A stretch of DNA of 64,000 nt from Bacteroidales bacterium. Lineage in GTDB: Bacteria; Bacteroidota; Bacteroidia; Bacteroidales; WCHB1-69. The position numbers and the translations under genes are program-made. The notes under the pieces are model-generated. The model searched no databases and was not told where the DNA came from. It was given only the letters and a program-made list of their open reading frames with translations. Location: assembly GCA_024400835.1 (NCBI GenBank), contig JAKSMC010000008.1, forward strand, positions 5,082 to 69,081, in the 5' to 3' direction. Positions 819-62,436 of this stretch are shown one piece after another (the first letter of the stretch is position 1; each line of letters starts with the position of its first letter).

Positions 819-881
819 GGGAATAGGTAATAGGGAATAGGGAATAGGGAATAGGTGATGGGGGTAGGGGTTAGGGATTGG
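819..881. repeat. Heptamer array A (GGGAATA/GGTAATA orientation on the + strand, degenerating to GGGGTAG/GGGTTAG)
   Basis: The sequence reads gggaata ggtaata gggaata gggaata gggaata ggtgatg ggggtag gggttag ggattgg. It fills the space between the hlyD start (811) and the four-helix-bundle gene and overlaps that gene's stop codon (871-873). Confidence 0.95.
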
Positions 882-1227
882 ATTTGGCGGTTTTTATGCG
901 TGAGGTGAGTAATTTTATCAGTTCGGAGCAGTCGTTGCTGATGCTTTCGAAGGCGATGTTGTCAATGTATTCTGATTCGTGTAGTAGTTCTAACCAATAT
1001 TCCGTTTCTGCAGCTTCCTTGAGCGCAATGGAAGATTTTGAAACGAAGTCCGCCTTAGATTGTGCGTAGGTGCTCTCAGTCAAATTGGCCCCGATGCTTG
1101 TTCCGCACCGCAGCACTTGCTTGGACATCACAAACTCCTTCCTCTCCTCAATCAGAAACTTATACAATCGTATAACCCTCAATGCAAAAGCCTTCGCTTT
1201 TTTCATAATAATTCCTTTATTTTCCAT
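871..1227 (-). CDS. Four-helix-bundle protein (23S rRNA intervening-sequence protein / S23-like family)
   Basis: The 118-aa ORF contains ...AFALRVIRLYKFL...VLRCGTSIGANLTESTYAQSKADFVSKSSIALKEAAETEYWLELL.... The GxSIGANxxE and EtxYWLxL motifs are characteristic of this family. An alternative start is M8 at 1206. Confidence 0.8.
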   Translation of the reverse strand: MENKGIIMKKAKAFALRVIRLYKFLIEERKEFVMSKQVLRCGTSIGANLTESTYAQSKADFVSKSSIALKEAAETEYWLELLHESEYIDNIAFESISNDCSELIKLLTSRIKTAKSNP

Positions 1228-1289: not shown

Positions 1290-1353
1290 CTATTACCTAC
1301 CACTTATTACCTATTACTTATTACTTATTACCTATTCCCTATTACCTATTCCC
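1290..1353. repeat. Heptamer array B (CTATTAC/CTATTCC orientation), inverted relative to array A
   Basis: Nine heptamers read ctattac ctaccac ttattac ctattac ttattac ttattac ctattcc ctattac ctattcc. Positions 1331-1353 (cctattccctattacctattccc) are the exact reverse complement of 819-841. The last codons and stop of the ABC gene (LGNR*) are encoded by the array. Confidence 0.95.
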
Positions 1354-3675
1354 TAACTCCAGCTGGTTCCTCACCAACTCGAAGTACTCGCCTCGCAGGG
1401 CGGTGAGTTCCTCGTGTGTGCCCGTCTCCGTGATGCGGCCGTGGTTGATGACCACGATTTGGTCGGCGTTCTTCACCGTGCTCAGGCGGTGCGCCACCAC
1501 GACAACCGTCCTTCCCTTGAAGAACTGCTGGAGGTTCTCCATAATCACCTTCTCGTTGTTGGCATCCAAGGCGTTGGTTGCCTCATCGAAGAAGAGGTAG
1601 TCGGGATTCTTATAGACGGCGCGGGCGATGAGTATGCGCTGGCGCTGGCCCTGACTGATGCCTTTGCCCTCCTGTCCTATCTTGGTGTTGAAGCCTAACG
1701 GCAGCCCGTCTATCATCTCCTGGATGTTGGCCACGCGCACGGCGTTGAGCAGGCGCTGGGTGTCGATGTGCTCGTCACCCACGGCGATGTTGCGGGCGAT
1801 GGTGTCCGAGAAGATGAATCCGTCCTGCATCACCGCGCCGCAGCGGTCACGCCAGAAGCGGTGACTGATGTTCTGCAGCCCCGTCTCGCCCACGCGGATC
1901 TCACCCTTGTTGGGCGGGTAGAAGCCGAGCAGCAGTTTCACCAAAGTGGTCTTGCCGCTGCCGCTCATCCCCACAATGGCCGTCACCTTGCCCTCCGGAA
2001 TGTGCAGCGACAAATCGTGCAGCACATCCTCCCCCAACTCATCATACCGAAATGTTATATTATTGATGTCGAGAGACGCGGCACGCCACGTCCCCACAAA
2101 ATCCCTATTCCCTATTACCTGTTCCTTATTCCCTATTACCTGTTCCCTATTACCTATTACCTGTTCCCTATTACCTATTACCTGTTCCCTATTACCTATT
2201 ACCTGTTCCCTATTACCTATTCCCTCTTCCCTCTCCTCGTCCTCGCGATTATGAATCTCCCCCAGCCGTTCCAGACTGATTTTGGCATCCTGCGCCGACT
2301 GGATGAAGCCTATCATCTGGTTGATGGGGGCGTTGAGCTGGCCGATGATGTACTGAACGGCGGTCATCATACCCAGGGTCATGTCGCCCTTGATGACGGC
2401 GGCGGCGGAGACGAAGGAGATGAGGATGTTCTTGGTCTCGTTGATGAAGAACGCGCCCGACTGCTGGTACTGGCTGAGCGCCAGGCCCTTGATGCTTACG
2501 CGGAAGAGCTTGGCCTGTATGTTCTCCCATTCCCAGCGTTTCTGCTTCTCGCAGTTGTTGAGCTTGATTTCCTGCATTCCCGTGATGAGCTGGTAGAGGT
2601 TGCTCTGCTCGGCGGAGGCCTGCGCGAAACGCTTGTAGTCCAACTCTTTTCGTTTTTTCAGGAATATGGTAATCCACAGCACGTAGAGGATGGAGGCCAC
2701 TAAAAAGACGAGGAACAGCTTGAGGCTGTAAAGCGCCAGCACGATGCTGAACACGATGAGGTTGACGAACGAGAACAGCGTGTTGAGCGTGGTGGAGGTG
2801 AGGAAGGCCTCGATGCGGCTGTGGTCGCCGATGCGCTGCATAATGTCGCCGATCATCTTGGTGTCGAAGAAGCCGATGGGCAGCTTCATCAGCTTGATGA
2901 GGAAGTCGGAGATGATGGAGATGTTGATGCGGGTGCTGATGTGCAGCAAGATCCACGAGCGGATGAACTCAACGGCGGTCTGCGCTAAGTAGAGGGTGAG
3001 CTGGGCGATGAGGATGACGATGACGAAGCTGAGATTGTTGTTGCCGATACCGTAATCCACGATGCTCTGCGTGAGGAATGGGAAGAAGAGCTGCAGCAGC
3101 GTGCCGAGCAGCATTCCGAGGAAGAGCTGCACGATGAGTTTCTTGTAGGGTTTGAGGTATTGGAGTACGAAGCGCAGTTTGGTCTTGTCCTGTTTTTCGT
3201 CTTCCTGTTTGTAGAAATCCGGGGTGGGTTCCAACAGCAGGGCGATGCCCTCGTCTTGGCCGTCCGTTTTGGTGCTGAGCCATCCTGACAGGAATTCCTG
3301 CACAGTGAATTTGATGAGACCCTGTGCGGGGTCAGCCACATAGACCAGTGAACTGTGATCAGTGAGCTGTGAACTGTCTTTGGGAGGTTTGATGTCGTAA
3401 ACGACCACGAAGTGGTTCTGTTTCCAGTGTACGATGCAGGGTAGGGGTGCCTCGCAGAGCTGTTGGAACGAGATGTGCACACCGACGGTGCGGAAGCCGA
3501 TGCCCTCGGCGGCGGTGCTGATGCCGAGCATACTCACCCCCTCGCGCCCGATGAAGCACTTCTGCCGGAGCGTCTCCAACGAATAGTGCTTGCCGTAGTG
3601 CTTGGCAATCATCCGCAGGCACGTCGGCCCGCAGTCCATCGCATCGAGCTGCTGATAAAACGGAAACTTACCCAT
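1342..3675 (-). CDS. Peptidase-C39-domain bacteriocin/RiPP ABC exporter (peptide cleavage/export permease-ATPase)
   Basis: The 777-aa product has an N-terminal C39 domain (QLDAMDCGPTCLRMIAKHYG...HWKQNHFVVVY...VADPA). It then has a six-TM ABC membrane domain and an NBD with Walker A GMSGSGKTT, signature ISQGQRQR, Walker B LFFDEATNALD and H-loop VVVAHRLST. Confidence 0.95.
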   Translation of the reverse strand: MGKFPFYQQLDAMDCGPTCLRMIAKHYGKHYSLETLRQKCFIGREGVSMLGISTAAEGIGFRTVGVHISFQQLCEAPLPCIVHWKQNHFVVVYDIKPPKDSSQLTDHSSLVYVADPAQGLIKFTVQEFLSGWLSTKTDGQDEGIALLLEPTPDFYKQEDEKQDKTKLRFVLQYLKPYKKLIVQLFLGMLLGTLLQLFFPFLTQSIVDYGIGNNNLSFVIVILIAQLTLYLAQTAVEFIRSWILLHISTRINISIISDFLIKLMKLPIGFFDTKMIGDIMQRIGDHSRIEAFLTSTTLNTLFSFVNLIVFSIVLALYSLKLFLVFLVASILYVLWITIFLKKRKELDYKRFAQASAEQSNLYQLITGMQEIKLNNCEKQKRWEWENIQAKLFRVSIKGLALSQYQQSGAFFINETKNILISFVSAAAVIKGDMTLGMMTAVQYIIGQLNAPINQMIGFIQSAQDAKISLERLGEIHNREDEEREEGIGNREQVIGNREQVIGNREQVIGNREQVIGNKEQVIGNRDFVGTWRAASLDINNITFRYDELGEDVLHDLSLHIPEGKVTAIVGMSGSGKTTLVKLLLGFYPPNKGEIRVGETGLQNISHRFWRDRCGAVMQDGFIFSDTIARNIAVGDEHIDTQRLLNAVRVANIQEMIDGLPLGFNTKIGQEGKGISQGQRQRILIARAVYKNPDYLFFDEATNALDANNEKVIMENLQQFFKGRTVVVVAHRLSTVKNADQIVVINHGRITETGTHEELTALRGEYFELVRNQLELGNR
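2104..2229. repeat. Heptamer array C inside the ABC exporter ORF: six 21-nt units of three heptamers each
   Basis: The unit cctatta cctatta cctgttc occurs as three perfect copies (2146-2208) flanked by three variant units. It is translated on the minus strand as GIGNREQV IGNREQV IGNREQV IGNREQV IGNKEQV IGNRDFV, in the linker between the TM domain and the NBD. Confidence 0.95.
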
Positions 3676-3785: not shown

Positions 3786-4898
3786 CTAATCTTCCCCCAA
3801 AATCTCCTTATTCAGTTTGTCAATCCGTTCCTTGTCCGGCACAAATCCCGTTTCGCGGGAATACGTGCCGCACTCCTCTACAGGCACGTAGCCTTCCTGG
3901 CCTTCCCAGAGGCAGATGTAGGGGTTGTAGGTACACTTGGCGGGTTGGGAGTAGATGTTTTCGGGATCTTTGATGAAGGCGCGGCAGTCGGTACACATAT
4001 AGCGGAACTCGCAATCCTTGCAAACGTCAATCTTGTCCTTATTGATGAACCAGAGATCCTTGAATCCCGGCTTGTTGATAGCCTCCTCCAAAGTGGTATC
4101 CCTGATGTTGCCGTAGCTTTTGGCCATAGCCGGACAGTTCTTGATGTTGCCCTCGGCATCAATGCACACCTTGCGGTTGAGGCAGGTGTTGTGGCACTGG
4201 GCTTCGGTGAAACATTCAATTGTTCTACAAAAATAATAAGGATGAATATTGCCGCAACTTATTGAGTTATCTATTTTCTCTTTAGTAATAATTATAGTAT
4301 TTTCTCCTTCTTGAATTATTTTATTGTAGTCAGAATTTGTAACAACAATTTTGCTAATAGAGGAGTTGTTTCTCCTCCAAGTTAAAAGTTCAGCTTCAGA
4401 TGCTATATTTGAAGCATTTATGACATACTCGAAATATTTCATACCTACATTACTGGCATAGTGTTGAATTTCAGAGATTTTTTCCGATTCAAAACGGCTA
4501 AAAATCAAAAATTGTATATTAACACAATTCAAACGGAGAAGTTCACTAAGTATGTTTTTATAAAATTTATAATTGAAATTGTTTAATACCAATATTGCAT
4601 TGGTGACATGTGCTGGATACGCCCAGGTCAGATCCATTTTGGGGAAATTTTGCAACTCATTGTCTTCTATCTCAAATAGATACTCTTCTTTAATAAGGCT
4701 ATTAATAAAAGAAGAAATGTTTTTTTGAGAGAACTTATCATATAGACCTATTGTTAGGGAATCAATCACATTATTATCATTGAATAAGCCAGTAATACCA
4801 TTTGGTATAAATATATGTTTGTCTCGCTGTAGATCGTATATACAACTTCTTCCATAACCTACCACAAGTCTACAGCATTCGAATAATCTATACTTCAT
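3786..4898 (-). CDS. SPASM-domain peptide maturase of the 'grasp-with-spasm' type (no canonical radical-SAM CX3CX2C motif visible)
   Basis: The 370-aa product starts MKYRLFECCRLVVGYGRSCIYDLQRD.... Its C-terminal Cys-rich SPASM-like region is CHNTCLNRKVCIDAEGNIKNC...CKDCEFRYMCTDC...C. The N-terminal half has no CxxxCxxC. The gene is adjacent to an ATP-grasp gene. Its 3' ~430 nt are GC-rich and its 5' ~680 nt are AT-rich. Confidence 0.8.
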   Translation of the reverse strand: MKYRLFECCRLVVGYGRSCIYDLQRDKHIFIPNGITGLFNDNNVIDSLTIGLYDKFSQKNISSFINSLIKEEYLFEIEDNELQNFPKMDLTWAYPAHVTNAILVLNNFNYKFYKNILSELLRLNCVNIQFLIFSRFESEKISEIQHYASNVGMKYFEYVINASNIASEAELLTWRRNNSSISKIVVTNSDYNKIIQEGENTIIITKEKIDNSISCGNIHPYYFCRTIECFTEAQCHNTCLNRKVCIDAEGNIKNCPAMAKSYGNIRDTTLEEAINKPGFKDLWFINKDKIDVCKDCEFRYMCTDCRAFIKDPENIYSQPAKCTYNPYICLWEGQEGYVPVEECGTYSRETGFVPDKERIDKLNKEILGED

Positions 4899-5091
4899 AA
4901 TTAGACAGATTAAAATTTAGAATTTTTGAAATGGTTTTATAAAAAGTAAACACCTTTTCCACTTCATTTGAATATTGTTTGATTTGTTCTTCGTTTGAAC
5001 TAGTGCTTTGGTCGATTTCCCAAAAATGTGCTATTACAGGATAGCGTTCGGGATTGTCCATTATTTCTTTCGTTAAGGGGGTTTCTTTCAT
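4888..5091 (-). CDS. Small acidic hypothetical protein (67 aa), translationally coupled between the ATP-grasp and SPASM genes
   Basis: Its start shares an ATGA overlap with the ATP-grasp stop (5088-5091), and it overlaps the SPASM gene start by 11 nt. No recognisable motif and no GG leader are present. Confidence 0.5.
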   Translation of the reverse strand: MKETPLTKEIMDNPERYPVIAHFWEIDQSTSSNEEQIKQYSNEVEKVFTFYKTISKILNFNLSNYEV

Positions 5092-6047
5092 TTCAATAAA
5101 TAATCTGCGATTGTTTTTTCTAAATGATAATTACAATTCCTGCTAAGCCATCCAAATTGTCCAATGGGATTGACTTCAAGAAAAACATACTGGTAGTCGG
5201 GAGTGACGATGATATCGGCGGATCCAGAGGTTAGTTTTAGTTGTCGATAAAGTTTAAGAAGTTTTTTCTCGTACCATAAAGGTAGTTTGTATGGTACGTT
5301 TCTATTGGGATTATCACTATCATAGTTCCGGAAATCCACTTGTGTCTTTTTATTATTTTGACTGAAGATTGCCATACTATAGATTTTGTCATCAAGAAAA
5401 AAACTTCGAATCTCATATTTCTTTTCAATATATTCTTGAAAAAGAGAAGGAACGAATGAAGCTGGAAGTTTCGCAATCTTGTAGTCGTTTAGCAGGACAG
5501 TTGAGGACGAGAACCTGTATTCCTTCCCGTTAATAATAGCATTTCCTAATGGAGCGACAGTGGATTTCGTAATAATTTTCCCGAATTTTTTTGCAAACTC
5601 TTCCAAGTCAGATTTACTACTAGTTACTAAGGTTGCAGGTATATTAATTCCTAAATGTTTGCAATTGTACAAAACATTCATTTTTTCAAGAAAATTATCA
5701 GAAGCACAATTGATATTACTAGTGAAATTCAAACTTTCCAGAAAAGTTTTAACTGGCGCCACATGTTTGTTCCACAAATACGTATTTACGCTGGGGTATT
5801 CTGATTTGCATTGAGTAAAAAAATTCAGCATACCTCTTCTGTACCAATATTTATCTTTTTCTGACACAGTATGCTGGTTGAAATCGACTATCACGTCATT
5901 GTCTGACACCAAAAGTTTCACGGATTCGATATCATAAAAATCATTTATTTCTATCAAGCAATCAGTATGACCATAGTAATTAAGCCATCGTACAACCTCG
6001 CTTGAGGATTCATCATCACTAACAGTTTGTATATATATATTCCTCAT
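5088..6047 (-). CDS. ATP-grasp RiPP maturase ('grasp-with-spasm' / MvdD-like graspetide ligase)
   Basis: The C-terminal half contains ...KIITKSTV...YEIRSFFLDDKIYSMAIFSQNNKKTQVDFRNYD...ADIIVTPDYQYVFLEVNPIGQFGW..., an ATP-grasp fold signature as in microviridin-type ligases. The start is chosen at M19 (6047), which abuts the upstream stop (6049-6051); the longest ORF would start at 6101. Confidence 0.82.
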   Translation of the reverse strand: MRNIYIQTVSDDESSSEVVRWLNYYGHTDCLIEINDFYDIESVKLLVSDNDVIVDFNQHTVSEKDKYWYRRGMLNFFTQCKSEYPSVNTYLWNKHVAPVKTFLESLNFTSNINCASDNFLEKMNVLYNCKHLGINIPATLVTSSKSDLEEFAKKFGKIITKSTVAPLGNAIINGKEYRFSSSTVLLNDYKIAKLPASFVPSLFQEYIEKKYEIRSFFLDDKIYSMAIFSQNNKKTQVDFRNYDSDNPNRNVPYKLPLWYEKKLLKLYRQLKLTSGSADIIVTPDYQYVFLEVNPIGQFGWLSRNCNYHLEKTIADYLLK

Positions 6048-6048
6048 A

Positions 6049-7200
6049 TTATAAGTATTGCGTATGTCCCCACCTAAAGACACAGCCCTGGTCTTCAGCA
6101 AATCGAATCTTTGCTCTGTCTGCTTCTAAAGAACAAATACAAAACTTTTTTCGAAGACCGTTAATTCTATCGTCTGGAATGATGGAGGCTAACGATGAGA
6201 CACCTACGGAACGATCAACAAAGAAAATTGCCATATTTTTTTCTGAGCAAAATAAAGGATTTTTACTCAAATAAGTGTCATACATAAAAGCATACAATCT
6301 TGGATGGAGGTTCCCTTTCTCTATTTCTTCAATGGCATATTTTTCAATATAGGCATACATACTGTCTTGATGGACATAGAAAGATTCCAATAGACCTTGT
6401 GTGAGTCTGTTTGTGTTCATTTCGTATAATATCGTGTCGATATGGTCAAATTCGATGTAAATAGTGTCGCCATTGGGCATTACGGATGTCAAAGGCCTAT
6501 CCCCAATAATTCTGGTCAATGCCGCTGAATCCCTAAATACTTTTGATTTGAAATCCAAGCAAGAAATTCCTAATTCGTCAAACAGTTGATTGTCATCAAT
6601 GCCGAGAATCTTTTGGCCGGGGAATCCGTATTTTTGAACAAGTTGCTGATATTTCATATCCCATACAAGGAGGCTGTCTTTATACGGGTTGTTTTCACTG
6701 TTTTCATATTCCTCCAGCACCATTTTTTGATCTGCTATGCAAAGGTCATAAATTTGGCACAGGTAGTCCGTGCTGATTGAATGAAGATAATATCGGTGCC
6801 TTTGCTTTCCTTCTTCTAAATTTTCATAAACCTGAAAATCTTTTAGAACTTCTGATTCCGCCCACATTGGAATGAATGCGAGGTGTTTGGACCGAAGGCC
6901 GTACTTTACGCCTTTATGAAGGTAGTATTCATAATTGTGCTTCGGATAATATGGAAATCTGTCCTTTGAAGTGTAAAAAGAAATTTGTGCTGCATTAAGC
7001 AAGTCGTTTACATAATTGAATTCAAAGTTGTCAAAAGCAAGGTCGTAATAATATAAGCAGCTATCCGCATTGTTATCCACAAAGAATGCATTTTCGGCTT
7101 GAGCTATCCACTGATGATATTGCCAATAATTGTCCCCAGCATATGGCTGTGCCACAAGGTACAAAGGGAACAACAATACAGTAATAAGTTTTTTTAGCAT
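6049..7200 (-). CDS. Hypothetical exported protein (383 aa) encoded between the precursor and the ATP-grasp gene
   Basis: The N-terminus MLKKLITVLLFPLYLVAQP looks like a signal peptide. The protein is Tyr/Asp-rich with no motif I recognise. It is tightly packed in the operon. Confidence 0.65.
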   Translation of the reverse strand: MLKKLITVLLFPLYLVAQPYAGDNYWQYHQWIAQAENAFFVDNNADSCLYYYDLAFDNFEFNYVNDLLNAAQISFYTSKDRFPYYPKHNYEYYLHKGVKYGLRSKHLAFIPMWAESEVLKDFQVYENLEEGKQRHRYYLHSISTDYLCQIYDLCIADQKMVLEEYENSENNPYKDSLLVWDMKYQQLVQKYGFPGQKILGIDDNQLFDELGISCLDFKSKVFRDSAALTRIIGDRPLTSVMPNGDTIYIEFDHIDTILYEMNTNRLTQGLLESFYVHQDSMYAYIEKYAIEEIEKGNLHPRLYAFMYDTYLSKNPLFCSEKNMAIFFVDRSVGVSSLASIIPDDRINGLRKKFCICSLEADRAKIRFAEDQGCVFRWGHTQYL

Positions 7201-7220
7201 AAACTTTGATTTTAATTTGT

Positions 7221-7260
7221 CAAGTGAGAAATTGACCAGAAACGGTCAGTTTCCCACTTG
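7221..7260 (-). terminator. Stem-loop immediately downstream of precursor gene 1 (attenuator or stabiliser; no U-tract)
   Basis: The sequence caagtgagaaattgacc-agaaac-ggtcagtttcccacttg forms a ~17-bp interrupted stem. It sits between the precursor stop (7278) and the next start (7200). Confidence 0.45.
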
Positions 7261-7277
7261 ATTTAAATTTTCATAAT

Positions 7278-7511
7278 CTACTTTTTATCTTCGGGGCATG
7301 GGATAGTGTAAGTATCGGATAGAACTTGTCCAAAACCACTTAGAGAATCATCGTAAATGTCACATTCGGTTGATATTATATTACCATTTTGATCTTTGTT
7401 ATATATTGTCGTTTTTCTTTTCGACCCACCTCTGATTTTCAAAGGAGAATCAATTGATTGAGATTTATAGTCTTCTAATTTTTTATTGTTGATTGTTTGT
7501 ATTTTTTTCAT
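7278..7511 (-). CDS. RiPP precursor peptide 1 (double-glycine leader; candidate graspetide/SPASM substrate)
   Basis: The sequence is MKKIQTINNKKLEDYKSQSIDSPLKIRGG | SKRKTTIYNKDQNGNIISTECDIYDDSLSGFGQVLSDTYTIPCPEDKK. The 29-aa Lys-rich leader ends in GG, which fits a C39 cleavage site. The 48-aa core is rich in Ser/Thr (10), Asp/Glu (8) and Lys (5), with 2 Cys. The start is taken at MKK (7511); the ORF track starts 2 codons earlier. Confidence 0.7.
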   Translation of the reverse strand: MKKIQTINNKKLEDYKSQSIDSPLKIRGGSKRKTTIYNKDQNGNIISTECDIYDDSLSGFGQVLSDTYTIPCPEDKK

Positions 7512-7517
7512 AACCAA

Positions 7518-7740
7518 ATAGTTTAAATGGTAAAACTCCTCTTTCCCGCGGGTGTGTCGGCACTTTGCGCGGCACTTTCGGGTATGTCATCACAACGGGA
7601 AAAATGGTATCTTTGCCGCCTGATTTGCAGTGCCATCGCGTTACAAACATCACGATATATGCGACCTCGGTGCTTTTGAGCAGGGTACATCGTACTAAGA
7701 ATGCGACTTCCTTGGCGATGTCCCTGCGGGGGCACCTGTT
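7518..7740 (-). other. GC-rich non-ORF segment upstream of precursor 1, paralogous to 11899..12120 upstream of precursor 2
   Basis: Collinear similarity blocks have matching spacing and matching distance (about 71-75 nt) to each precursor ATG: 7586-7634 vs 11969-12016, 7678-7691 vs 12055-12068, and 7717-7733 vs 12097-12113. The segment also contains the direct repeat cggcacttt N3 cggcacttt at 7557-7580. Confidence 0.6.
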
Positions 7741-7743
7741 TTA

Positions 7744-7778
7744 GGGAATAAGTAATAGGTTATAGGTAGTATGTGATG
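7744..7778. repeat. Heptamer array E (GGGAATA orientation, degenerate, 5 units)
   Basis: The array reads gggaata agtaata ggttata ggtagta tgtgatg. Positions 7744-7759 are the exact reverse complement of cctattacttattccc, which is present twice in array D (3687-3702 and 3701-3716). Confidence 0.8.
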
Positions 7779-8088: not shown

Positions 8089-8535
8089 TTAAGTAATAAA
8101 ACAGCCTATCGAGAAGCGGAATTTTCGGAGAAAATCCGATGGGGGATGGTGGGGATTTCGGAGAAATTTGATGAGGCCCTGCGCGGGGTCCGCCACATAG
8201 ACCAGTGAACTGTGATCAGTGAGCTGTGAACTGTCTTTGGGGCGTTTGATATCGTAAACGACCACGAAGTGGTTCTGTTTCCAATGCACGATGCAGGGCA
8301 ATGGTGCCTCGCAGAGCTGTTGGAACGAGATGTGCACGCCGATAGTGCGGAAGCCGATGCCCTCGGCGGCGGTGCTGATGCCGAGCAGGCTCACGCCCTC
8401 GCGGCCGATGAAGCACTTCTGCCGGAGCGTCTCCAACGAATAGTGCTTGCCGTAGTGCTTGGCAATCATCCGCAGGCAAGTGGGGCCGCAATCCATGGCA
8501 TCGAGTTGCTTGTAAAACGGGAATTTTTTACTCAT
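8089..8535 (-). CDS. Stand-alone peptidase C39 domain: a truncated paralog of the 5' end of the ABC exporter gene (functional status unknown)
   Basis: The 148-aa ORF has its first ~123 aa nearly identical to the exporter N-terminus (MSKKFPFYKQLDAMDCGPTCLRMIAKHYG...HWKQNHFVVVY...VADPAQGLIKF). The nucleotide homology 8166-8535 vs ~3318-3675 is roughly 90% by eye. It then diverges into an unrelated 24-aa tail. The catalytic Cys, His and Asp positions are retained. Confidence 0.55.
   Translation of the reverse strand: MSKKFPFYKQLDAMDCGPTCLRMIAKHYGKHYSLETLRQKCFIGREGVSLLGISTAAEGIGFRTIGVHISFQQLCEAPLPCIVHWKQNHFVVVYDIKRPKDSSQLTDHSSLVYVADPAQGLIKFLRNPHHPPSDFLRKFRFSIGCFIT
8138..8157. repeat. G-rich heptamer-like patch at the C39-paralog breakpoint, flanked by a 10-bp direct repeat
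   Basis: The patch gatgggg gatggtg gggatt resembles the degenerate end of array A. It is flanked by ttcggagaaa at 8124-8133 and 8157-8166. Homology to the full-length exporter gene ends here. Confidence 0.6.
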
Positions 8536-8660: not shown

Positions 8661-8850
8661 TTATTCACAAGTTACATGTGAAAAAAAAACTCTTTTTTTC
8701 AATTTTGCGGAGAAGGGGATAAATGAGTTCTCGGACGAACTTATCTTTTCGTGGTAAGCTGCTTCGAACACCTCTACGGGTATCTATCCTATCAAGAGCT
8801 ACCTGTCTGTACAAAAAGAGTGAGCATGATTCGTTTTATTTTTTTTAAAT

Positions 8851-10275
8851 CTATTTCTTGTCATTCATCACCATTTTCACAATCTCTTCGACATCACTAT
8901 TCTCGAAATCCCTTTCCACATCAGGGGCAATCCCGTTCGAGCAGTCGCGGTTGCGGGTGTCAAAACTTCTGAACGAGTTGATCATGCAGATGATGCCTGA
9001 GGGGAGCGGTACCACAAGCGGCTGACCTGTAGCACCCGCAGTGGTTTTTCCCACCACACACACATTCGGACTTTGCACGAGCTGCATCACGAAACCCTCT
9101 GCGGCGGAGGCTGTGCGCGGACCGACCAAGACGTAAACTTTCCCATGATACCGTTGCGAGTTCGGATTCCCGTTCGCCACCGTAGTTGCTTGGATGGTAT
9201 CGAACGCATTATTGAATAAATGCGGACAATAGACCCGTTTGGTGTATTCATCCATGGATTCAGGATCTCCATACAGCATTCTCACAGCCGCCCAAGCCCG
9301 GTAGGCCGAATTGTTGACCCGCGACAACAGCACTCCCGACAACATAATCGAATCTTTATCAACAAGATAAGGCGTTATAGGAGAATAGGCTCTGCCGTCG
9401 CCCCCCAAATTGTTGCGCAAATCCAGAACGAAATGCATATTTTGGTTGATTGTGGGTAAATATTTCATGAAAGTGTCCACCGTGGCCGCATTGCAATCGT
9501 CGATACGCAGATATGCAGCATCTTGTGCCGGAAAAACCACAAACAGATTATTATTTCCAGCCAAGTTTTCACTTTCTATCGCCATCCAATGGTATTTCAA
9601 CTGTTCCTCTTCCTGTTCTTTTGATGGAGAAAAATGCCAGTCGTAACCTATTGACAGCTTCTTGAGCCCATTTCCCGATTTCACCTCCATTTCCAGCTTT
9701 GTGTTATAGCTTTTCGGTTGGAAAATCATGGGATGCAAGGCATTCGGCGTGAACATCGCGGCTTCAAGCAAGGTCTCTTGATTGGTGCAAGAAATCAGTG
9801 GCGCTACATTTTGCGTAAACCATTCCACTGCAGGAATCCCATCTATACGGACAATTTCATCCCCAACTGAAACCTTGTCGGCGTATTGAGAGCTGATATT
9901 GCGGATATAAATCCTGCCGTCTCTGTACTCCGTCTGCAGTCGAATCATCGCCAACGAAGGCATTAGCTGTTGCGGCATCATGCAGTAGGTGTGGCTGTTA
10001 TGAAAATGCGCCAAGAACTCCTGCATCGTCAGGTAGTGCTCGAAATCGTCCTTTGTCCGCTGAATCTTGGGGATATAGGCGGCATAGAGACTGTCCACGT
10101 TCAGTCCCTGACAATTATCCATATTGGCGAAGTTGTAGGACAACTCTTTCCAAACCACAGCGAGTTCGTATATTTTTTGAGATGATGTGAGCTGTTCTTT
10201 ACCGCCAACTTGTGCGATAAGGGTTGGCGTAATCAAGATTGTCACAAAAGCTAAAATAAAAGGAATTTTTTTCAT
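8851..10275 (-). CDS. Peptidase S41 family (tail-specific/C-terminal processing protease-like), with signal peptide
   Basis: The 474-aa product starts MKKIPFILAFVTILITPTLIAQ. It contains FVLDLRNNLGGDG and VYVLVGPRTASAAEGF, which match S41 DLRxNxGG and S-A-x-E type motifs. Its start lies 12 nt downstream of the rSAM gene. Confidence 0.8.
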   Translation of the reverse strand: MKKIPFILAFVTILITPTLIAQVGGKEQLTSSQKIYELAVVWKELSYNFANMDNCQGLNVDSLYAAYIPKIQRTKDDFEHYLTMQEFLAHFHNSHTYCMMPQQLMPSLAMIRLQTEYRDGRIYIRNISSQYADKVSVGDEIVRIDGIPAVEWFTQNVAPLISCTNQETLLEAAMFTPNALHPMIFQPKSYNTKLEMEVKSGNGLKKLSIGYDWHFSPSKEQEEEQLKYHWMAIESENLAGNNNLFVVFPAQDAAYLRIDDCNAATVDTFMKYLPTINQNMHFVLDLRNNLGGDGRAYSPITPYLVDKDSIMLSGVLLSRVNNSAYRAWAAVRMLYGDPESMDEYTKRVYCPHLFNNAFDTIQATTVANGNPNSQRYHGKVYVLVGPRTASAAEGFVMQLVQSPNVCVVGKTTAGATGQPLVVPLPSGIICMINSFRSFDTRNRDCSNGIAPDVERDFENSDVEEIVKMVMNDKK

Positions 10276-10287
10276 TTCAAATGTCTA

Positions 10288-11589
10288 TTACTTTTTTGCA
10301 ACTTTGCTTCTAATATATCTTTGGAATGATATTTCTGAATAATCATTGCGACATACAAAATCATGCTTACCTTTTTGTATTTCATAATGGTGTTGCACAC
10401 AGGGACCATAACACAATGGTAATATTTTACAATTCAAACATTTTTCATTGTCAAAAGTGGTTTTGCCAAAATAGGTGCTCATAACATTGTCATCGAGTAT
10501 CAAATCTCCATCAGAGCATAATCTTCCAATTACTAAACTGTCATCATAGTCCCGTGCTGCACATTTGTAGATTTTACCATCATAATTTATCACTCTGTGG
10601 TAATAGTTGTCTGAATAACACGCTGAAAAGCCACGATGCCTATACGCAAAATACTCTACTTGAAATCCAGCCTCCTCAAAATCACGTTTCCTTTGTAATA
10701 GAGTTTCGTTTTCACCAGAAATGGGATCTTTAGACAATCCAACCTGCCATATTCTTTGAAAATCAACAAAAATACTTTTTCTGTTCTTAACGGGGAAAAA
10801 GTCTATTATTTCTGAAATATCCGACAACGTGTCAGTGTCATAATTGATTCTCAGAACCACCATTGAGTTTTCAATACTTTCGCAGATATAATTTACATTA
10901 TCTATTATTTTTTTAAAATGCCCTTCCCCCTTGATATTTTTCACCATATTATGCCTTGTTTCGTTCCCGTCAATCGGAATTTGAAATTTATTCAAATTGA
11001 TGGTATTACAGGCTTTTATTATTTCCTCATTGAAATAATAACCATTGGTGGTGATTTGGTTAATAAACGGCAATCTGTGGCGTTTGCATAATTCAATAGC
11101 ATGTGTCGAAATCGGAAGTATTACTTCGTTAAAATACATTAATGGTTCTCCTCCAAACCAATCAATATGTAAAGAATTAACGCCGTTCTTCACTATCTTG
11201 AGTATGTGATTCTTTATTTTCTGAATGGTTGAGTTGTCCATTCGTCTCTTTTCATATTTAGTGTTCATTTCTTCTACACAACAATACCAACACCTATAAT
11301 TACATTGTAACGTTGGATTTATCGTTAAGTGGTAATTCCTTTCCGACAGGATTGTCTCTTTGTTTTTGAACAATAAATAATTTATTTCGTCGAATTTTTC
11401 GTCTACAATGAAATGACATTGAATAAAATACTGAAAGATATCCGGATAGTGTTCTTCAAATTCATTCAAGTTGGTTAAATAGTACTTGATGTCATTGGTT
11501 TCTTTAGAATCAAATTCGATTGCTATATCTGAAAAAGAGTTATAAAGAATGTTCTCTTGCCAAATATTAAATACGCTGTTTTTTTTCAT
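10288..11589 (-). CDS. Radical SAM/SPASM peptide maturase
   Basis: LTINPTLQCNYRCWYCCV provides the CX3CX2C motif. The C-terminal SPASM motif is CLNCKILPLCYGPC (CX2CX5CX3C) plus auxiliary Cys residues. The start is chosen at MKKNSVF (11589); the longest ORF starts at 11619 but would run through the hairpin/U-tract. Confidence 0.88.
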   Translation of the reverse strand: MKKNSVFNIWQENILYNSFSDIAIEFDSKETNDIKYYLTNLNEFEEHYPDIFQYFIQCHFIVDEKFDEINYLLFKNKETILSERNYHLTINPTLQCNYRCWYCCVEEMNTKYEKRRMDNSTIQKIKNHILKIVKNGVNSLHIDWFGGEPLMYFNEVILPISTHAIELCKRHRLPFINQITTNGYYFNEEIIKACNTINLNKFQIPIDGNETRHNMVKNIKGEGHFKKIIDNVNYICESIENSMVVLRINYDTDTLSDISEIIDFFPVKNRKSIFVDFQRIWQVGLSKDPISGENETLLQRKRDFEEAGFQVEYFAYRHRGFSACYSDNYYHRVINYDGKIYKCAARDYDDSLVIGRLCSDGDLILDDNVMSTYFGKTTFDNEKCLNCKILPLCYGPCVQHHYEIQKGKHDFVCRNDYSEISFQRYIRSKVAKK

Positions 11590-11606
11590 ATCAATTATTT
11601 TTACTG

Positions 11607-11671
11607 AAAAAATGCCCAAAAGGATCTTATCAAAACCTTATGCTCTTATTGTTTTAATGCCCTTTTGGGCA
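11607..11671 (-). terminator. Intrinsic-terminator-like attenuator between precursor 2 and its rSAM maturase
   Basis: An 11-bp perfect stem pairs 11661-11671 with 11613-11623 (gcccaaaagg/ccttttgggc core) around a 37-nt loop. It is followed on the minus strand by UUUUUU (11612-11607), 18 nt before the maturase ATG. Confidence 0.55.
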
Positions 11672-59619: not shown

Positions 59620-61719
59620 TTAATGAGCTACAACAAACTTCTTTTTCAACACTTTTCCATTCCCCTTACAGACCAAAAAGTAGATGCCACTGTTAAATCC
59701 AGCTACTGTAATCTCAGCTCTATCACCTTTTGCTATAATATTTTGCACACCAATCTGTCTACCGCTGAAATCCATAATCTCCAAATCCCATGAATCTGCA
59801 TCCGGAAGTATCACATTTACCACATCCGCAGATGGATTCGGATATATTATCATAGATTCCTCTGTAAAATCTTTCACAGAAGAGGCTGTGTCCGTAGTCC
59901 AATGCATCGTAAATCCTTCACCATTCAAGTAATTATCCGTTATGAAGGTAATCATTATCACATTTGAATTAAATGTCACTTGCTGTGGCAAATCGCAGCC
60001 AGAATAAGAAGCCAGCAGTTCCTTGGGACTGGTTTTAAGATTATAGAAATTCAATTGATCCTCAGGGCTCAAGCAGAACTCAGAAAAAGAAAATGTAATA
60101 CTCGGCCTATTTTCGACACGTATTCTCCAAAAGCAGTTCATGTTATTTCCATAATTATCCGGTCCGCTGCCATCTGTGATATCTCCAGAATATTGATAGT
60201 TTATCTGCCCGGAATTGCACGGAAGCACATCTCGGCCCACATTGTATTTCAGTTTCCACCCGCTTGCTGTCAAGGAATCATCTGTATCGAAAATGATATA
60301 GAGACTATCAGTATTGAAAGTATACGAGCCTTGGGGCATTGAACCCGAAATAGCCAAAAGTCGATTGCCGTTTTGAGGATTTCCATCCCAAAAAGACAAG
60401 GAGTCTCCTGGTTCGGTTTCAAACTTGACAAGTTCAACTGTGACGCTATAAGTTCTATCTTCAGTAATAACATACTCGCAGTGCATATTGTTCTGATAAT
60501 CCAAAGGGCCACTGCCATCCTCCAAAGTTCCATTTGAGCATGTAATAACTCTTGAATCACAGGAATAAGGATATTGTTCGTCGGCAGGATAGCAGTTCAC
60601 AATAGCACCTTGTCCGCTGCTAAATCCACCCACCGGATTTGAAGCGCCACCGTTGGAACTCAGAGCATAATAGCCATTTGAAGAGCCTCCCCAGCCAAAA
60701 TTAAAATGGAAAAGATTATCTGAATTGTATCCGTCGCAGATAAACGCATGCCCACCGTCGTCAGAATATCCGGAATAATACAGGGGCCTATTAGCATCCA
60801 ACTCAGAAGCGAGCAACTGTCTCCAAGAGCTACCGCTGTATTGGTATTTATGTTCGAAAGAACAATTCGGGGCATAACCGAAATACTGCACTAAAGCATC
60901 AGGAACATTCTCTGAATAGGCACCGGAGCCTTCCGGAGAATACATCATATCTACAGAGGTTGCACAATGAAAGATCAACTTCGCGACTTCCTCATTATAA
61001 AATGAGAGTTCGTCTTCCATAGCATCGTAATAATAGGTTTGTTCCGCGAAATTAACATGAAAATTTCCATATTCGGTATAATTGGTATGAGAGCCCCAGC
61101 CATGTGAAGGGTAGCGATAGTAGTACAAAAGCGAAGACATTGCTACAGCCACACAACCATTGGGGACACGATTGTCGTATCCGGCCGGCGACTCGGAATC
61201 CATCGGAGAATATTTGTTATAGTACTTATTCTGGTTCCACATAGAAGTAATCAAGGGAGATACGACAACGGAACGGGATTGCTTAGTGCTCGGTCTTTCC
61301 AACATTGCCCATTCGGCCGCAACCTCATCCGTTTGATCGAAGTTATTGTCCCTCATAAATTGGATTTCTTTCTGATACAAATCTATCCAATATCTCGCGC
61401 CTGGGGCAGCCTGGTCCATAACAAGATTGCTTGTGAACGAATAAGCCAGGACCGGCATAGCCACGTCATCAGCAGCCAGAAGAAGGAATCCCTTGTTGAA
61501 ATTGAACAATGCGAGGAGAGGCGCATCAGAAGTTCCTCCAAGATATTGAACATCTTTCAACTCGATATCATTGGTGCTAACACTAAGAATTTCAGCTTTT
61601 TGTTTAAAGGCACGCTGGCCAAAAGCAGTTAATTTCGATTTAGAAACGGGATTAGCGCCTGCTGCTAATGACAGGAAGCCAAAAACCAAAAACAAGGTAA
61701 TGTAACGATATACTTTCAT
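59620..61719 (-). CDS. Peptidase C10 (streptopain/SpeB-like cysteine protease) with Spi-type propeptide, two CUB-like domains and a T9SS C-terminal sorting domain
   Basis: The propeptide-like region is ...LLALFNFNKGFLLLAADDVAMPVLAYS. The catalytic Cys context is NGCVAVAMSSLLYYYRYP and the His context is GGHAFICDGY. The two CUB-like segments are CSNGTLEDGSGPLDYQNNMHCEYVI and CNSGQINYQYSGDITDGSGPDNYGNNMNCFWRI. The C-terminal tail is IIYPNPSADVVNVIL...GIYFLVCKGNGKVLKKKFVVAH. The start is chosen at MKVYRY (61719). Confidence 0.85.
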   Translation of the reverse strand: MKVYRYITLFLVFGFLSLAAGANPVSKSKLTAFGQRAFKQKAEILSVSTNDIELKDVQYLGGTSDAPLLALFNFNKGFLLLAADDVAMPVLAYSFTSNLVMDQAAPGARYWIDLYQKEIQFMRDNNFDQTDEVAAEWAMLERPSTKQSRSVVVSPLITSMWNQNKYYNKYSPMDSESPAGYDNRVPNGCVAVAMSSLLYYYRYPSHGWGSHTNYTEYGNFHVNFAEQTYYYDAMEDELSFYNEEVAKLIFHCATSVDMMYSPEGSGAYSENVPDALVQYFGYAPNCSFEHKYQYSGSSWRQLLASELDANRPLYYSGYSDDGGHAFICDGYNSDNLFHFNFGWGGSSNGYYALSSNGGASNPVGGFSSGQGAIVNCYPADEQYPYSCDSRVITCSNGTLEDGSGPLDYQNNMHCEYVITEDRTYSVTVELVKFETEPGDSLSFWDGNPQNGNRLLAISGSMPQGSYTFNTDSLYIIFDTDDSLTASGWKLKYNVGRDVLPCNSGQINYQYSGDITDGSGPDNYGNNMNCFWRIRVENRPSITFSFSEFCLSPEDQLNFYNLKTSPKELLASYSGCDLPQQVTFNSNVIMITFITDNYLNGEGFTMHWTTDTASSVKDFTEESMIIYPNPSADVVNVILPDADSWDLEIMDFSGRQIGVQNIIAKGDRAEITVAGFNSGIYFLVCKGNGKVLKKKFVVAH

Positions 61720-61807
61720 AAAGAGAAAAAATGCTGGCAAAAGTACAAAAAAAGGGGAACGCATCAAAACGCCCCCCAACTTCAGTAAAATTTTGTTTTA
61801 CAATATA

Positions 61808-62269
61808 TTACAAACTGTCAATATCAGAGATAGGATCCAACAAGTCATCATCTCTGTCACTATGGGTAGAAACTCCCGCACTTCTTTGCAAAGACGCGAT
61901 AAGAGAGCCTATCATTTTAGTCAGTTCCATAAGTTGTGTCCTGGAATAAACTTTAGCATCGTCGTCCAGCAATTGCATACGGTAAGCCAGCTCCGTATAT
62001 ACGACACATTCTCTGACAGAACTTTTTGCCATTTTCAAATAATATAAAAACTGGGTTTTGCTCCTTGAAGAGCCTTCCGCCGTATTCAATGCAATATTAT
62101 TTGCAGATTTCTGGAATGATTCTTTTAAAAAAATAAGATTTTTTTCATCACACATTGGAGATGAAGTGGAAATTCTTTCATAAAGCCACGTGATATAATC
62201 CATAGCTTTTGCGTATATACGCAGGTCTTCAAACCGAAAGAAGCTTACATTAATATCTTGCTCATTCAT
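61808..62269 (-). CDS. Four-helix-bundle protein (23S rRNA IVS protein family), second copy
   Basis: It contains ...FRFEDLRIYAKAMDYITWLYE...NNIALNTAEGSSRSKTQFLYYLKMAKSSVRECVVYTELAYRMQLL.... The start is chosen at MNEQDIN (62269). Unlike the first copy, it is not flanked by heptamer arrays. Confidence 0.7.
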   Translation of the reverse strand: MNEQDINVSFFRFEDLRIYAKAMDYITWLYERISTSSPMCDEKNLIFLKESFQKSANNIALNTAEGSSRSKTQFLYYLKMAKSSVRECVVYTELAYRMQLLDDDAKVYSRTQLMELTKMIGSLIASLQRSAGVSTHSDRDDDLLDPISDIDSL

Positions 62270-62436
62270 AATAATAGTGTTTAGAGTTTTAAAATGGCAA
62301 AGATACTTTTTTTTCATATACGGAGATGTCGTTAACATTTTTTAACAATTATTTTTTTCAAACTGCAGAAGAGAGAGTGTGAAGGTGCGATTACTACAGC
62401 ATTTTTTGTATTTTTGCCTTCCAAATTTTACAAGTC

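Follow-up and report, generated by a model that had tools for sequence, protein, structure and literature searches.

A tandem repeat in the linker of a Bacteroidales peptide exporter, probably an intergenic heptamer array turned into a coding minisatellite

We analyzed a 64,000-nt stretch of DNA from a Bacteroidales bacterium (GenBank assembly GCA_024400835.1, contig JAKSMC010000008.1, positions 5,082 to 69,081 of the forward strand), hereafter called the window. It carries the gene of an ATP-binding cassette (ABC) exporter in which a heptamer-based tandem repeat, array C, is translated between the transmembrane domain (TMD) and the nucleotide-binding domain (NBD). Our results suggest that array C is probably an intergenic heptamer array that was caught in a permissive linker and turned into a 21-nt coding minisatellite. 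The gene and the repeat features within it are as follows:

1342–3675, minus strand: host gene, a 777-aa peptidase-containing ABC exporter (PCAT) with C39 peptidase, six-helix transmembrane domain and NBD (Pfam, NCBIfam, solved structures)
2099–2231, minus strand: coding array C, composed of about 18.7 heptamers that form 6.2 copies of the 21-nt unit ATAGGTAATAGGGAACAGGTA (Tandem Repeats Finder (TRF), sequence and frame analysis)
2067–2098, minus strand: GC-rich hairpin GUGGGGACGUGGCGUGCCGCGUCUCUCGAC, directly 3' of array C (fold −16.2 kcal/mol, z = −2.07)
3346–3377, minus strand: second in-gene heptamer tract, AGTTCAC x4.3, in the C39 beta-hairpin loop at about aa 97–109 (TRF, ortholog alignment)

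The exporter and the position of its linker insert

Pfam profiles assign Peptidase_C39 (PF03412, E = 1e-30) to aa 4–132, ABC_membrane (PF00664) to aa 185–450 and ABC_tran (PF00005) to aa 552–701, so that membrane domain and NBD are on one polypeptide. Cys15 and His88 are invariant in 41 homologs, and the protein matches the solved structures of PCAT1 (4ry2), ComA (8hf7) and HlyB (7sgr) with E = 1e-84 to 1e-103. The genomic context is also that of a PCAT, with TIGR04192 and TIGR04193 maturases upstream and an HlyD-like gene downstream. The scores for the curated NCBIfam models stay below their cut-offs (TIGR03796, 470.3 vs 853.3 bits; TIGR01193, 405.8 vs 523.85 bits): the exporter has the PCAT architecture and lies outside these named subfamilies. 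Its TMD is under purifying selection, the protein being 95–100% identical while the DNA is 5–12% divergent.

The initial annotation, made from the sequence without database searches, had placed the repeat in the TMD–NBD linker. We aligned aa 300–600 of the exporter with the solved structures. The match to the HlyB membrane domain (7sgr, 8dck) stops at residue 480 (...SLERLGEIHNREDE) and the match to its NBD restarts at residue 535 (LDINNITFRY...), which leaves 14 residues in HlyB and 54 (aa 481–534) in the exporter; the match to the NBD of PCAT1 (4ry2) begins at residue 524. An AlphaFold2 model, built on an alignment of 41 close homologs, has a mean predicted local distance difference test (pLDDT) of 59.8 and a poor membrane domain. 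We used it only for the confident boundaries of C39 and NBD, and the linker position was taken from the HlyB alignment. In this model, residues 481–530 have a pLDDT of 27–44 and the first NBD strand (535–543) one of 83. Judging from the alignment, the insert sits in the canonical linker, between the last TMD helix and the first NBD strand, as the initial annotation proposed; the model predicts that it is probably disordered.

Periodicity, reading frame and length variation of array C

TRF detects, at 2102–2232, a repeat of period 21 with 6.2 copies (95% matches, score 227), and a second call gives period 7 with 18.7 copies. On the minus strand, the heptamers follow one another as GGGAATA, GGTAATA, GGGAACA, GGTAATA, GGTAATA, GGGAACA and so on, a family that can be written GGKAAYA. 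They encode (IGNREQV)n at about aa 484–527. The translation across the array, ...EEREEGIGNREQVIGNREQVIGNREQVIGNREQVIGNKEQVIGNRDFVGTWRAASL..., is identical to the one first reported, and the description of six 21-nt units of three heptamers was correct. The fifth unit is a variant (IGNKEQV), and the flanks of the array are ordered. A coiled coil was considered for the 7-aa repeat and rejected by inspection, given a Gly in every heptad, the lack of a hydrophobic pattern at positions a and d, and low model confidence.

A homogeneous GGTAATA/GGGAATA repeat is necessarily closed, because three heptamers run through all three frames. Array C is open because each third heptamer is GGGAACA and not GGGAATA, which changes the in-frame TAG to CAG (Gln). 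It is open in exactly one forward frame, the other two having stops in every unit. The 21-nt superstructure likewise exists because GGGAACA recurs at every third heptamer. The periodic GGGAACA and this superstructure therefore show directly that selection shaped the coding copy and that the 21-nt unit was recently amplified.

The initial annotation had further proposed that gain or loss of one heptamer would frameshift the gene between TMD and NBD, making the array an ON/OFF switch of peptide export akin to a contingency locus. The underlying period is indeed 7, four GGTAATA-GGTAATA doublets are still present within the array, and an event of +/−7 nt is predicted to lead to immediate truncation, since both alternative frames contain TAA or TAG in every unit. 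The family is also unstable, with flanking arrays that vary between strains by arbitrary numbers of heptamers. However, the longest perfect 7-nt periodic run in array C is 17 nt (2.4 copies), against 90 nt (4.3 units) at period 21. Self-identity is higher when the array is shifted by 21 nt (0.93) than by 7 nt (0.79), and a 7-nt misalignment would produce some 4 mismatches in every 21 nt. The tracts of known contingency loci are homogeneous, and array C is not a homogeneous tract of a non-multiple-of-3 unit within its open reading frame (ORF). The non-coding arrays of the window show no preference for period 21, and in one of them, array D, the 7-nt period is perfect over 36 nt. Array C is effectively a 21-nt minisatellite rather than a heptamer tract.

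The length variants agree with this. The 90%-identity cluster of the window protein contains 11 members, 4 of them full length: the window allele (777 aa) and those of three independent assemblies (749, 749 and 750 aa). Their linker DNA differs by exactly 84 nt (4 × 21), that is, 6 units in the window and 2, 2 and 2 in the others, in alleles otherwise 96–100% identical. A translated 21-nt unit present in 6 or 2 copies makes array C a coding minisatellite, or variable number tandem repeat (VNTR), and the view of a hypervariable linker holds. In the wider family, one QCTMYNE is lost from the linker in P0064/65 (P0064 vs P0017), a change of 7 aa, and the C39 loop shows QCTMG or QCTMNNVQCTKG (P0044 vs P0005), again a 7-aa difference. 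Every length difference observed at array C and at the related sites within genes thus comes in steps of 21 nt. In contrast, array D has 16 heptamers in the window, about 11 in locus L001, about 6 in L002 and 0 in L003, and variation of array B moves the exporter stop, giving a C-terminus ...ELGNR* or ...ELGDRE*. In this small sample, non-coding copies vary by single heptamers and coding copies in steps of three.

No truncated protein ending at array C occurs in the 11-member cluster, called-protein databases favoring intact genes, and none of the four database alleles of array C is frameshifted. Scans of JGI metagenomes with the array–hairpin junction GGGATTTTGTGGGGACGTGGCG and the junction between 21-nt units GGGAACAGGTAATAGGTAATAGGGAACAGG gave 0 hits each. 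We consider a contingency switch, with reversible loss and return of export, very unlikely: a +/−7 event is predicted to truncate the protein, while the array is mutationally a 21-nt repeat for which only 21-nt multiples were seen among the four full-length alleles.

Another explanation is that the six copies result from short-read assembly and that the true allele has two units like its relatives. At 133 nt, the array is near the read or k-mer length of typical short-read assemblies, and three independent assemblies show 2 units. Yet the variant fifth unit (IGNKEQV) and the ordered flanks are not expected from simple k-mer looping, and the flanking arrays differ between the same assemblies in a strain-like manner. 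An artefact is, in our view, extremely improbable.

Insertion sites, related arrays and the surrounding locus

The initial annotation had recommended a comparison with orthologous exporters. We surveyed 79 species-level genome loci of Bacteroidota at 57–84% identity, the window not being among them, and measured the linker as the stretch running from SLERL to Walker A:

64–66 aa: 72 of the 79 loci
67–68 aa: 4 loci
79 aa: 2 loci, from rumen metagenome-assembled genomes (MAGs)
115 aa: 1 locus, from a termite-gut MAG
102 aa: the window exporter

We also compared the 120 closest database proteins, all from Bacteroidales of gut or rumen metagenomes, in which the deeper branches have a linker without insert. 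A clade of 83–89% identical proteins carries 7-aa-periodic peptides at the same site (LGIRNEE-LGIMTDG, QCTMYNE-QCTMIGD, FAMGNGQ-WAMNGDM, SEQLIVN-SEQLESF), followed by peptides like VGTYRIRPMDL, VETCHGASLQ or VGTWRAASL. At the DNA level, the insert of these relatives is a heptamer array followed by a GC-rich hairpin (AATTAGG x4.7 in L004, GCAATGG x3.9 in L005, CAATGTA x4.7 in L086). The hairpin at 2067–2098 of the window, which encodes FVGTWRAASL and belongs to the inserted block, has equivalents after the arrays of L004, L005 and L013. The last of these is the termite-gut locus, whose linker holds a pair of 9-mer arrays flanked by hairpins, the first with a perfect 12-bp stem (−22.2 kcal/mol, z = −5.2); this insert is an independent one. 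The IGNREQV peptide encoded by non-repetitive DNA, the finding that the initial annotation had named as contrary to its reading, was found in no ortholog examined. That the linker insert is derived and its site an insertion hotspot is well supported by these sequence comparisons.

The recurrence of inserts might also mean that the (IGNREQV)n peptide is adaptive, as a tunable spacer or a TMD–NBD interaction module whose length modulates coupling or partner binding. Some repeat is present at the site in most of the rumen clade, and the number of units varies between strains. Against this, the sequences at the site are unrelated across lineages (IGNREQV, LGIRNEE, QCTMYNE, FAMGNGQ, SEQLIVN), the region is predicted to be disordered, most orthologs function without an insert, and the peptide is merely what the DNA repeat encodes in its sole open frame. 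We judge an adaptive peptide highly improbable.

A degenerate pattern of three heptamers of the family has 45 matches in the window, compared to 0.02 expected by chance, and all 45 fall within five arrays in the first 8 kb. Besides array C, these are:

817–881 (pattern matches 817–860), plus strand: array A, in the opposite orientation to B, C and D; between the four-helix-bundle gene described below and the start codon of the HlyD-like gene
1291–1360, minus strand: array B, about 10 heptamers; starts within the last exporter codons
3675–3793, minus strand: array D, about 16 heptamers; takes up the entire spacer between the SPASM stop codon and the exporter ATG
7744–7771, plus strand: array E, short and degenerate, inverted relative to D, with which it brackets a low-GC grasp-with-spasm block

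Neither TRF nor the pattern scan detected heptamer arrays in the remaining 56 kb; with all five arrays in the first 8 kb, the idea that they are a genome-wide property is unsupported within the window. Arrays A, B, D and E are tandem, lie beside start codons and vary in copy number, as intergenic heptamer arrays do. Each of their three forward frames contains TAA or TAG, and their reverse strand is open in all frames. The claim that the family is non-coding outside array C has to be corrected on one point: array B encodes the end of the exporter with its last five codons and stop (ELGNR*), the upstream SPASM gene terminates at the first TAG of array D, and the degenerate end of array A overlaps the four-helix-bundle gene in its final codons. 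Array C descends from this intergenic family and is not typical of it.

Heptamer arrays of varied units are also found 0–130 nt past the exporter stop in L018, L022, L031, L035, L036, L043, L046, L050 and L056. Such arrays just past the stop thus occur in at least nine distant Bacteroidota loci, and about half of the arrays detected in approximately 0.8 Mb of flanks are located just downstream of the exporter gene. It is plausible that arrays of the GAATTAG and TAGGGAA types were seeded from the conserved C-terminal codons ...GAATTAGGAAATTAG. As a general origin this was rejected, the unrelated post-stop heptamers of distant loci being left unexplained.

The second in-gene tract is located in a loop of the C39 domain between strands 88–96 and 110–115 of the AlphaFold2 model. 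A copy of it is present at 8203–8234. In orthologs, the same loop is either without insert or filled by CAATGTA arrays (QCTMNNVQCTKG) or by hairpin peptides (VETRHGTSLQ, VVGANNHSPLR), and L086 has the same heptamer, CAATGTA, in both the C39 loop (x4.4) and the linker.

Both insert sites coincide with shifts in nucleotide divergence from the window. For L084, divergence is 15.6% in nt 1–270, 5.5% in the TMD and 15.6% in the NBD (22.9% in its first 375 nt), and for L085 the corresponding values are 3.7%, 8.0% and 8.8%. The rank reversal between these contigs, the two informative ones of our mosaicism sample, is significant for each segment (Fisher p = 3e-6 for nt 1–270, 0.025 for TMD, 1e-4 for NBD). 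Since the shifts are abrupt at both insert sites, recombination tracts end at or near the repeat inserts. Possibly the arrays promote exchange, or the unalignable inserts halt heteroduplex extension. In relatives, the TMD (aa 150–478) is 95–100% identical at the protein level while the NBD (aa 536–777) is only 84–88% identical. A TMD more conserved than the NBD is opposite to what ABC transporters usually show and fits mosaic recombination.

Inverted arrays also enclose a small gene downstream of the exporter:

871–1227, minus strand: four-helix-bundle gene (PF05635, E = 1.2e-27; TIGR02436, 103.8 bits vs a cut-off of 24), between arrays A and B (817–1360)

The arms of array A against B and D are 47–50 nt long and 87–90% complementary, and array A is 85–92% complementary to array C over 38–47 nt. 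A profile search of all fetched loci revealed five further four-helix-bundle genes, four of them directly downstream of the exporter (L002, L018, L022, L029). Three of these four lie within inverted repeats of unrelated heptamers, which in L022 consist of AGCAGTT (36–43-nt arms, 86–97% complementary). These bracketed cassettes are:

L022, 6193–6759
L018, 6595–7102
L029, 6178–6686

L086 represents the empty site, its exporter stop and adaptor (HlyD) ATG being 2 nt apart; the four-helix-bundle cassette with its arrays therefore appears to be a discrete insertion. By analogy with 23S rRNA intervening sequences, the cassette arms could form a long RNA or DNA stem. PF05635 is named after these sequences, which the layout of stem plus ORF recalls. 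Our search of the literature for four-helix-bundle or 23S intervening-sequence genes with inverted repeats in Bacteroidetes found nothing specific. The window contains a second gene of this family (61808–62338, minus strand, 176-aa ORF), which is flanked by inverted repeats of 17–20 nt (61717–61752 and 62397–62418, 85–94% complementary) that are not heptamer arrays.

The surrounding locus comprises:

10288–11619, minus strand: radical S-adenosylmethionine (rSAM)/SPASM maturase
8851–10275, minus strand: S41 peptidase
8089–8535, minus strand: 148-aa truncated copy of the exporter C39 region, 94% nucleotide identity to 3308–3607 over 300 nt
5088–6101, minus strand: ATP-grasp maturase of the grasp-with-spasm type, TIGR04192, above cut-off
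3786–4898, minus strand: SPASM maturase, TIGR04193, above cut-off
812 to <1, minus strand: HlyD-type adaptor gene, continuing beyond the window edge

By decreasing coordinate, the order on the minus strand is SPASM maturase, S41 peptidase, C39 copy, array E, low-GC block, array D, exporter, array B, four-helix-bundle gene, array A and adaptor. The low-GC block (3786–7740) has 28–36% GC, compared to 50–60% in the exporter gene, and also holds a precursor-sized ORF and a gene of unknown family. Its low GC and its position between the inverted arrays D and E suggest that the grasp-with-spasm block is a separately acquired module. Relatives have either rSAM-S41-exporter (L003) or DUF6624...SPASM-exporter (L002, L084, L086). 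The window therefore has the look of two fused clusters for ribosomally synthesized and post-translationally modified peptides (RiPPs), in which a remnant of the first exporter gene was kept; the fused clusters appear to have shared homologous exporters. C39-only fragments of 143–149 aa are also found in other metagenomes.

At 383–465, the HlyD-like gene contains a 39-nt tandem repeat x1.9 with a hairpin GGACGAAAAATTTTTCGTCC, read in frame as KNFSSIQTGDIQS-TNFSSLQLGDIQS. With it, the export operon has a third site at which repeats were inserted in frame. In the adaptor gene of L086, a GAGACGC...GCGTCTC hairpin is in frame at a similar position (8676–8697), and across loci hairpins of this type recur in frame at three distinct genes or sites, as well as at the end of one gene.

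These features raise the possibility that the arrays, array C included, are cis-elements acting at the DNA or RNA level, as module borders that favor or limit exchange between exporter and RiPP cassettes or as arms of long-range RNA duplexes. The tract ends at both in-gene inserts (rank reversal of L084 and L085) point in this direction, as do the inverted arrays around the four-helix-bundle gene, in the window and with unrelated heptamers in L022, L018 and L029. So do the inverted arrays D and E, bracketing the low-GC block beside the truncated C39 duplicate, and the complementarity of array A to B, C and D, which resembles the stem of a 23S intervening sequence. However, divergent inserts passively block heteroduplex extension, so that tract ends would accumulate even if the arrays played no active part. 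We identified no recombinase and no protein that binds the arrays, and the mosaic sample of two informative contigs is small. We regard such a role of the arrays as unlikely.

Interpretation and comparison with known systems

We favor, as the probable history, the conversion of an intergenic heptamer array into a coding minisatellite. An array of the GGKAAYA family, with the adjacent GC-rich hairpin, would have lodged in the TMD–NBD linker of the exporter. Replacement of T by C in each third heptamer (GGGAATA to GGGAACA, TAG to CAG) would then have produced a 21-nt unit encoding IGNREQV. This unit, and not the heptamer, would now expand and contract, probably by replication slippage or unequal recombination, so that alleles have 2 or 6 units and the disordered linker varies in length, which the transporter may tolerate. 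The initial annotation had likewise seen the invasion of a coding region by an array selected to stay in frame, and its view is borne out by the orthologs without insert, the family flanking the gene and the periodic T-to-C change that removes TAG. We infer that the insert has no required function of its own, that slippage is the mechanism and that the protein tolerates the insert.

Several points weigh against this interpretation. Only four full-length alleles of array C are present in the searched collections, so that the length spectrum is barely sampled, and the databases are biased towards intact ORFs. The count of six units comes from one MAG assembly. The neutrality of the insert is presumed, and the arrays at module borders, together with the tract ends at two in-gene inserts, hint at a role at the DNA or RNA level.

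A bolder proposal, which we hold to be quite unlikely, is that the arrays, inverted or direct, are joints of modular peptide-export loci in Bacteroidota that promote the exchange of modules, and that the linker array could toggle between a fused and a split exporter after a +/−7 event. The modules between arrays would be the four-helix-bundle cassette, the maturase block and the C39, TMD and NBD segments. An in-frame GTG at Val527, closely after array C, is a potential start for a separate NBD. Speculatively, array C would after such an event resemble the inter-cistronic array D, with stops followed by GTG (Val527), and the exporter might be split, not silenced. ABC transporters with TMD and NBD as separate polypeptides are common.

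Returning to the conversion of an intergenic array, it offers a legible case of non-coding repeat DNA becoming protein, a heptamer closed in all frames being opened by one substitution in every third unit. The TMD–NBD linker and the C39 loop of PCAT exporters appear as recurrent permissive sites, useful for engineered insertions or tags. Heptamer arrays, unexplained in Cyanobacteria, Beggiatoaceae and Bacteroidota, are placed at the borders of genes and modules where rumen Bacteroidales encode RiPP export. If the association of arrays with recombination ends and four-helix-bundle genes were general, it would give a handle on the role of both the arrays and these small genes. The general interest is modest; it is raised somewhat by the frame-rescue logic, by the recurrent hotspots and by the link of arrays with recombination boundaries and four-helix-bundle cassettes.

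The closest published relatives of the non-coding arrays are the TAACTGA repeats of Beggiatoaceae, Cyanobacteria and some Bacteroidetes, which are intergenic heptamer arrays (MacGregor, 2015, PMC4679880). They abut start codons, vary in copy number between strains, have all forward frames stopped and the reverse strand open, and roles in translation or rearrangement were suggested for them (PMC4679880). Cyanobacterial short tandemly repeated repetitive (STRR) sequences and the long simple sequence repeats (LSSR) of Mrazek et al. (2007) enter the comparison as cited in PMC4679880. Arrays A, B, D and E resemble the TAACTGA and STRR repeats in that they abut start codons, are closed forward and open in reverse, and vary in copy number, but their heptamer is GGKAAYA. 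In the published heptamer cases, repeats within ORFs are peripheral or reverse-oriented, whereas array C is read forward in the middle of a multidomain protein and opened by a periodic stop-removing substitution. A literature search for heptanucleotide repeats in Bacteroidales found nothing.

Rickettsia palindromic elements are repeated, hairpin-containing DNA inserted in frame at fold-compatible positions of unrelated genes (reviewed in PMC10969869). The in-frame hairpins and repeats in the linker, the C39 loop and the HlyD-like gene are similar, but the chief part here is a tandem array of changing copy number. We identified no conserved element of about 100–150 bp, terminal inverted repeats or target-site duplications at the inserts.

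Simple-sequence contingency loci, with tetranucleotide and heptanucleotide tracts, occur in Haemophilus influenzae (PMC2651432). Like these, array C has short units within an ORF, an underlying unit that is not a multiple of three and a visibly unstable family. Unlike these, it is not homogeneous at period 7, its effective unit has 21 nt and all variants seen are in frame.

The remaining class is that of bacterial coding VNTRs, or minisatellites (survey in PMC6749651). Array C shares with them a unit that is a multiple of 3 nt, an amino-acid repeat and a copy number polymorphic between strains. It differs from surface-protein VNTRs by its position in the cytoplasmic inter-domain linker of an ABC exporter, and from other coding VNTRs because its descent from an intergenic heptamer family is readable in the sequence. 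A VNTR is the best formal description of array C.

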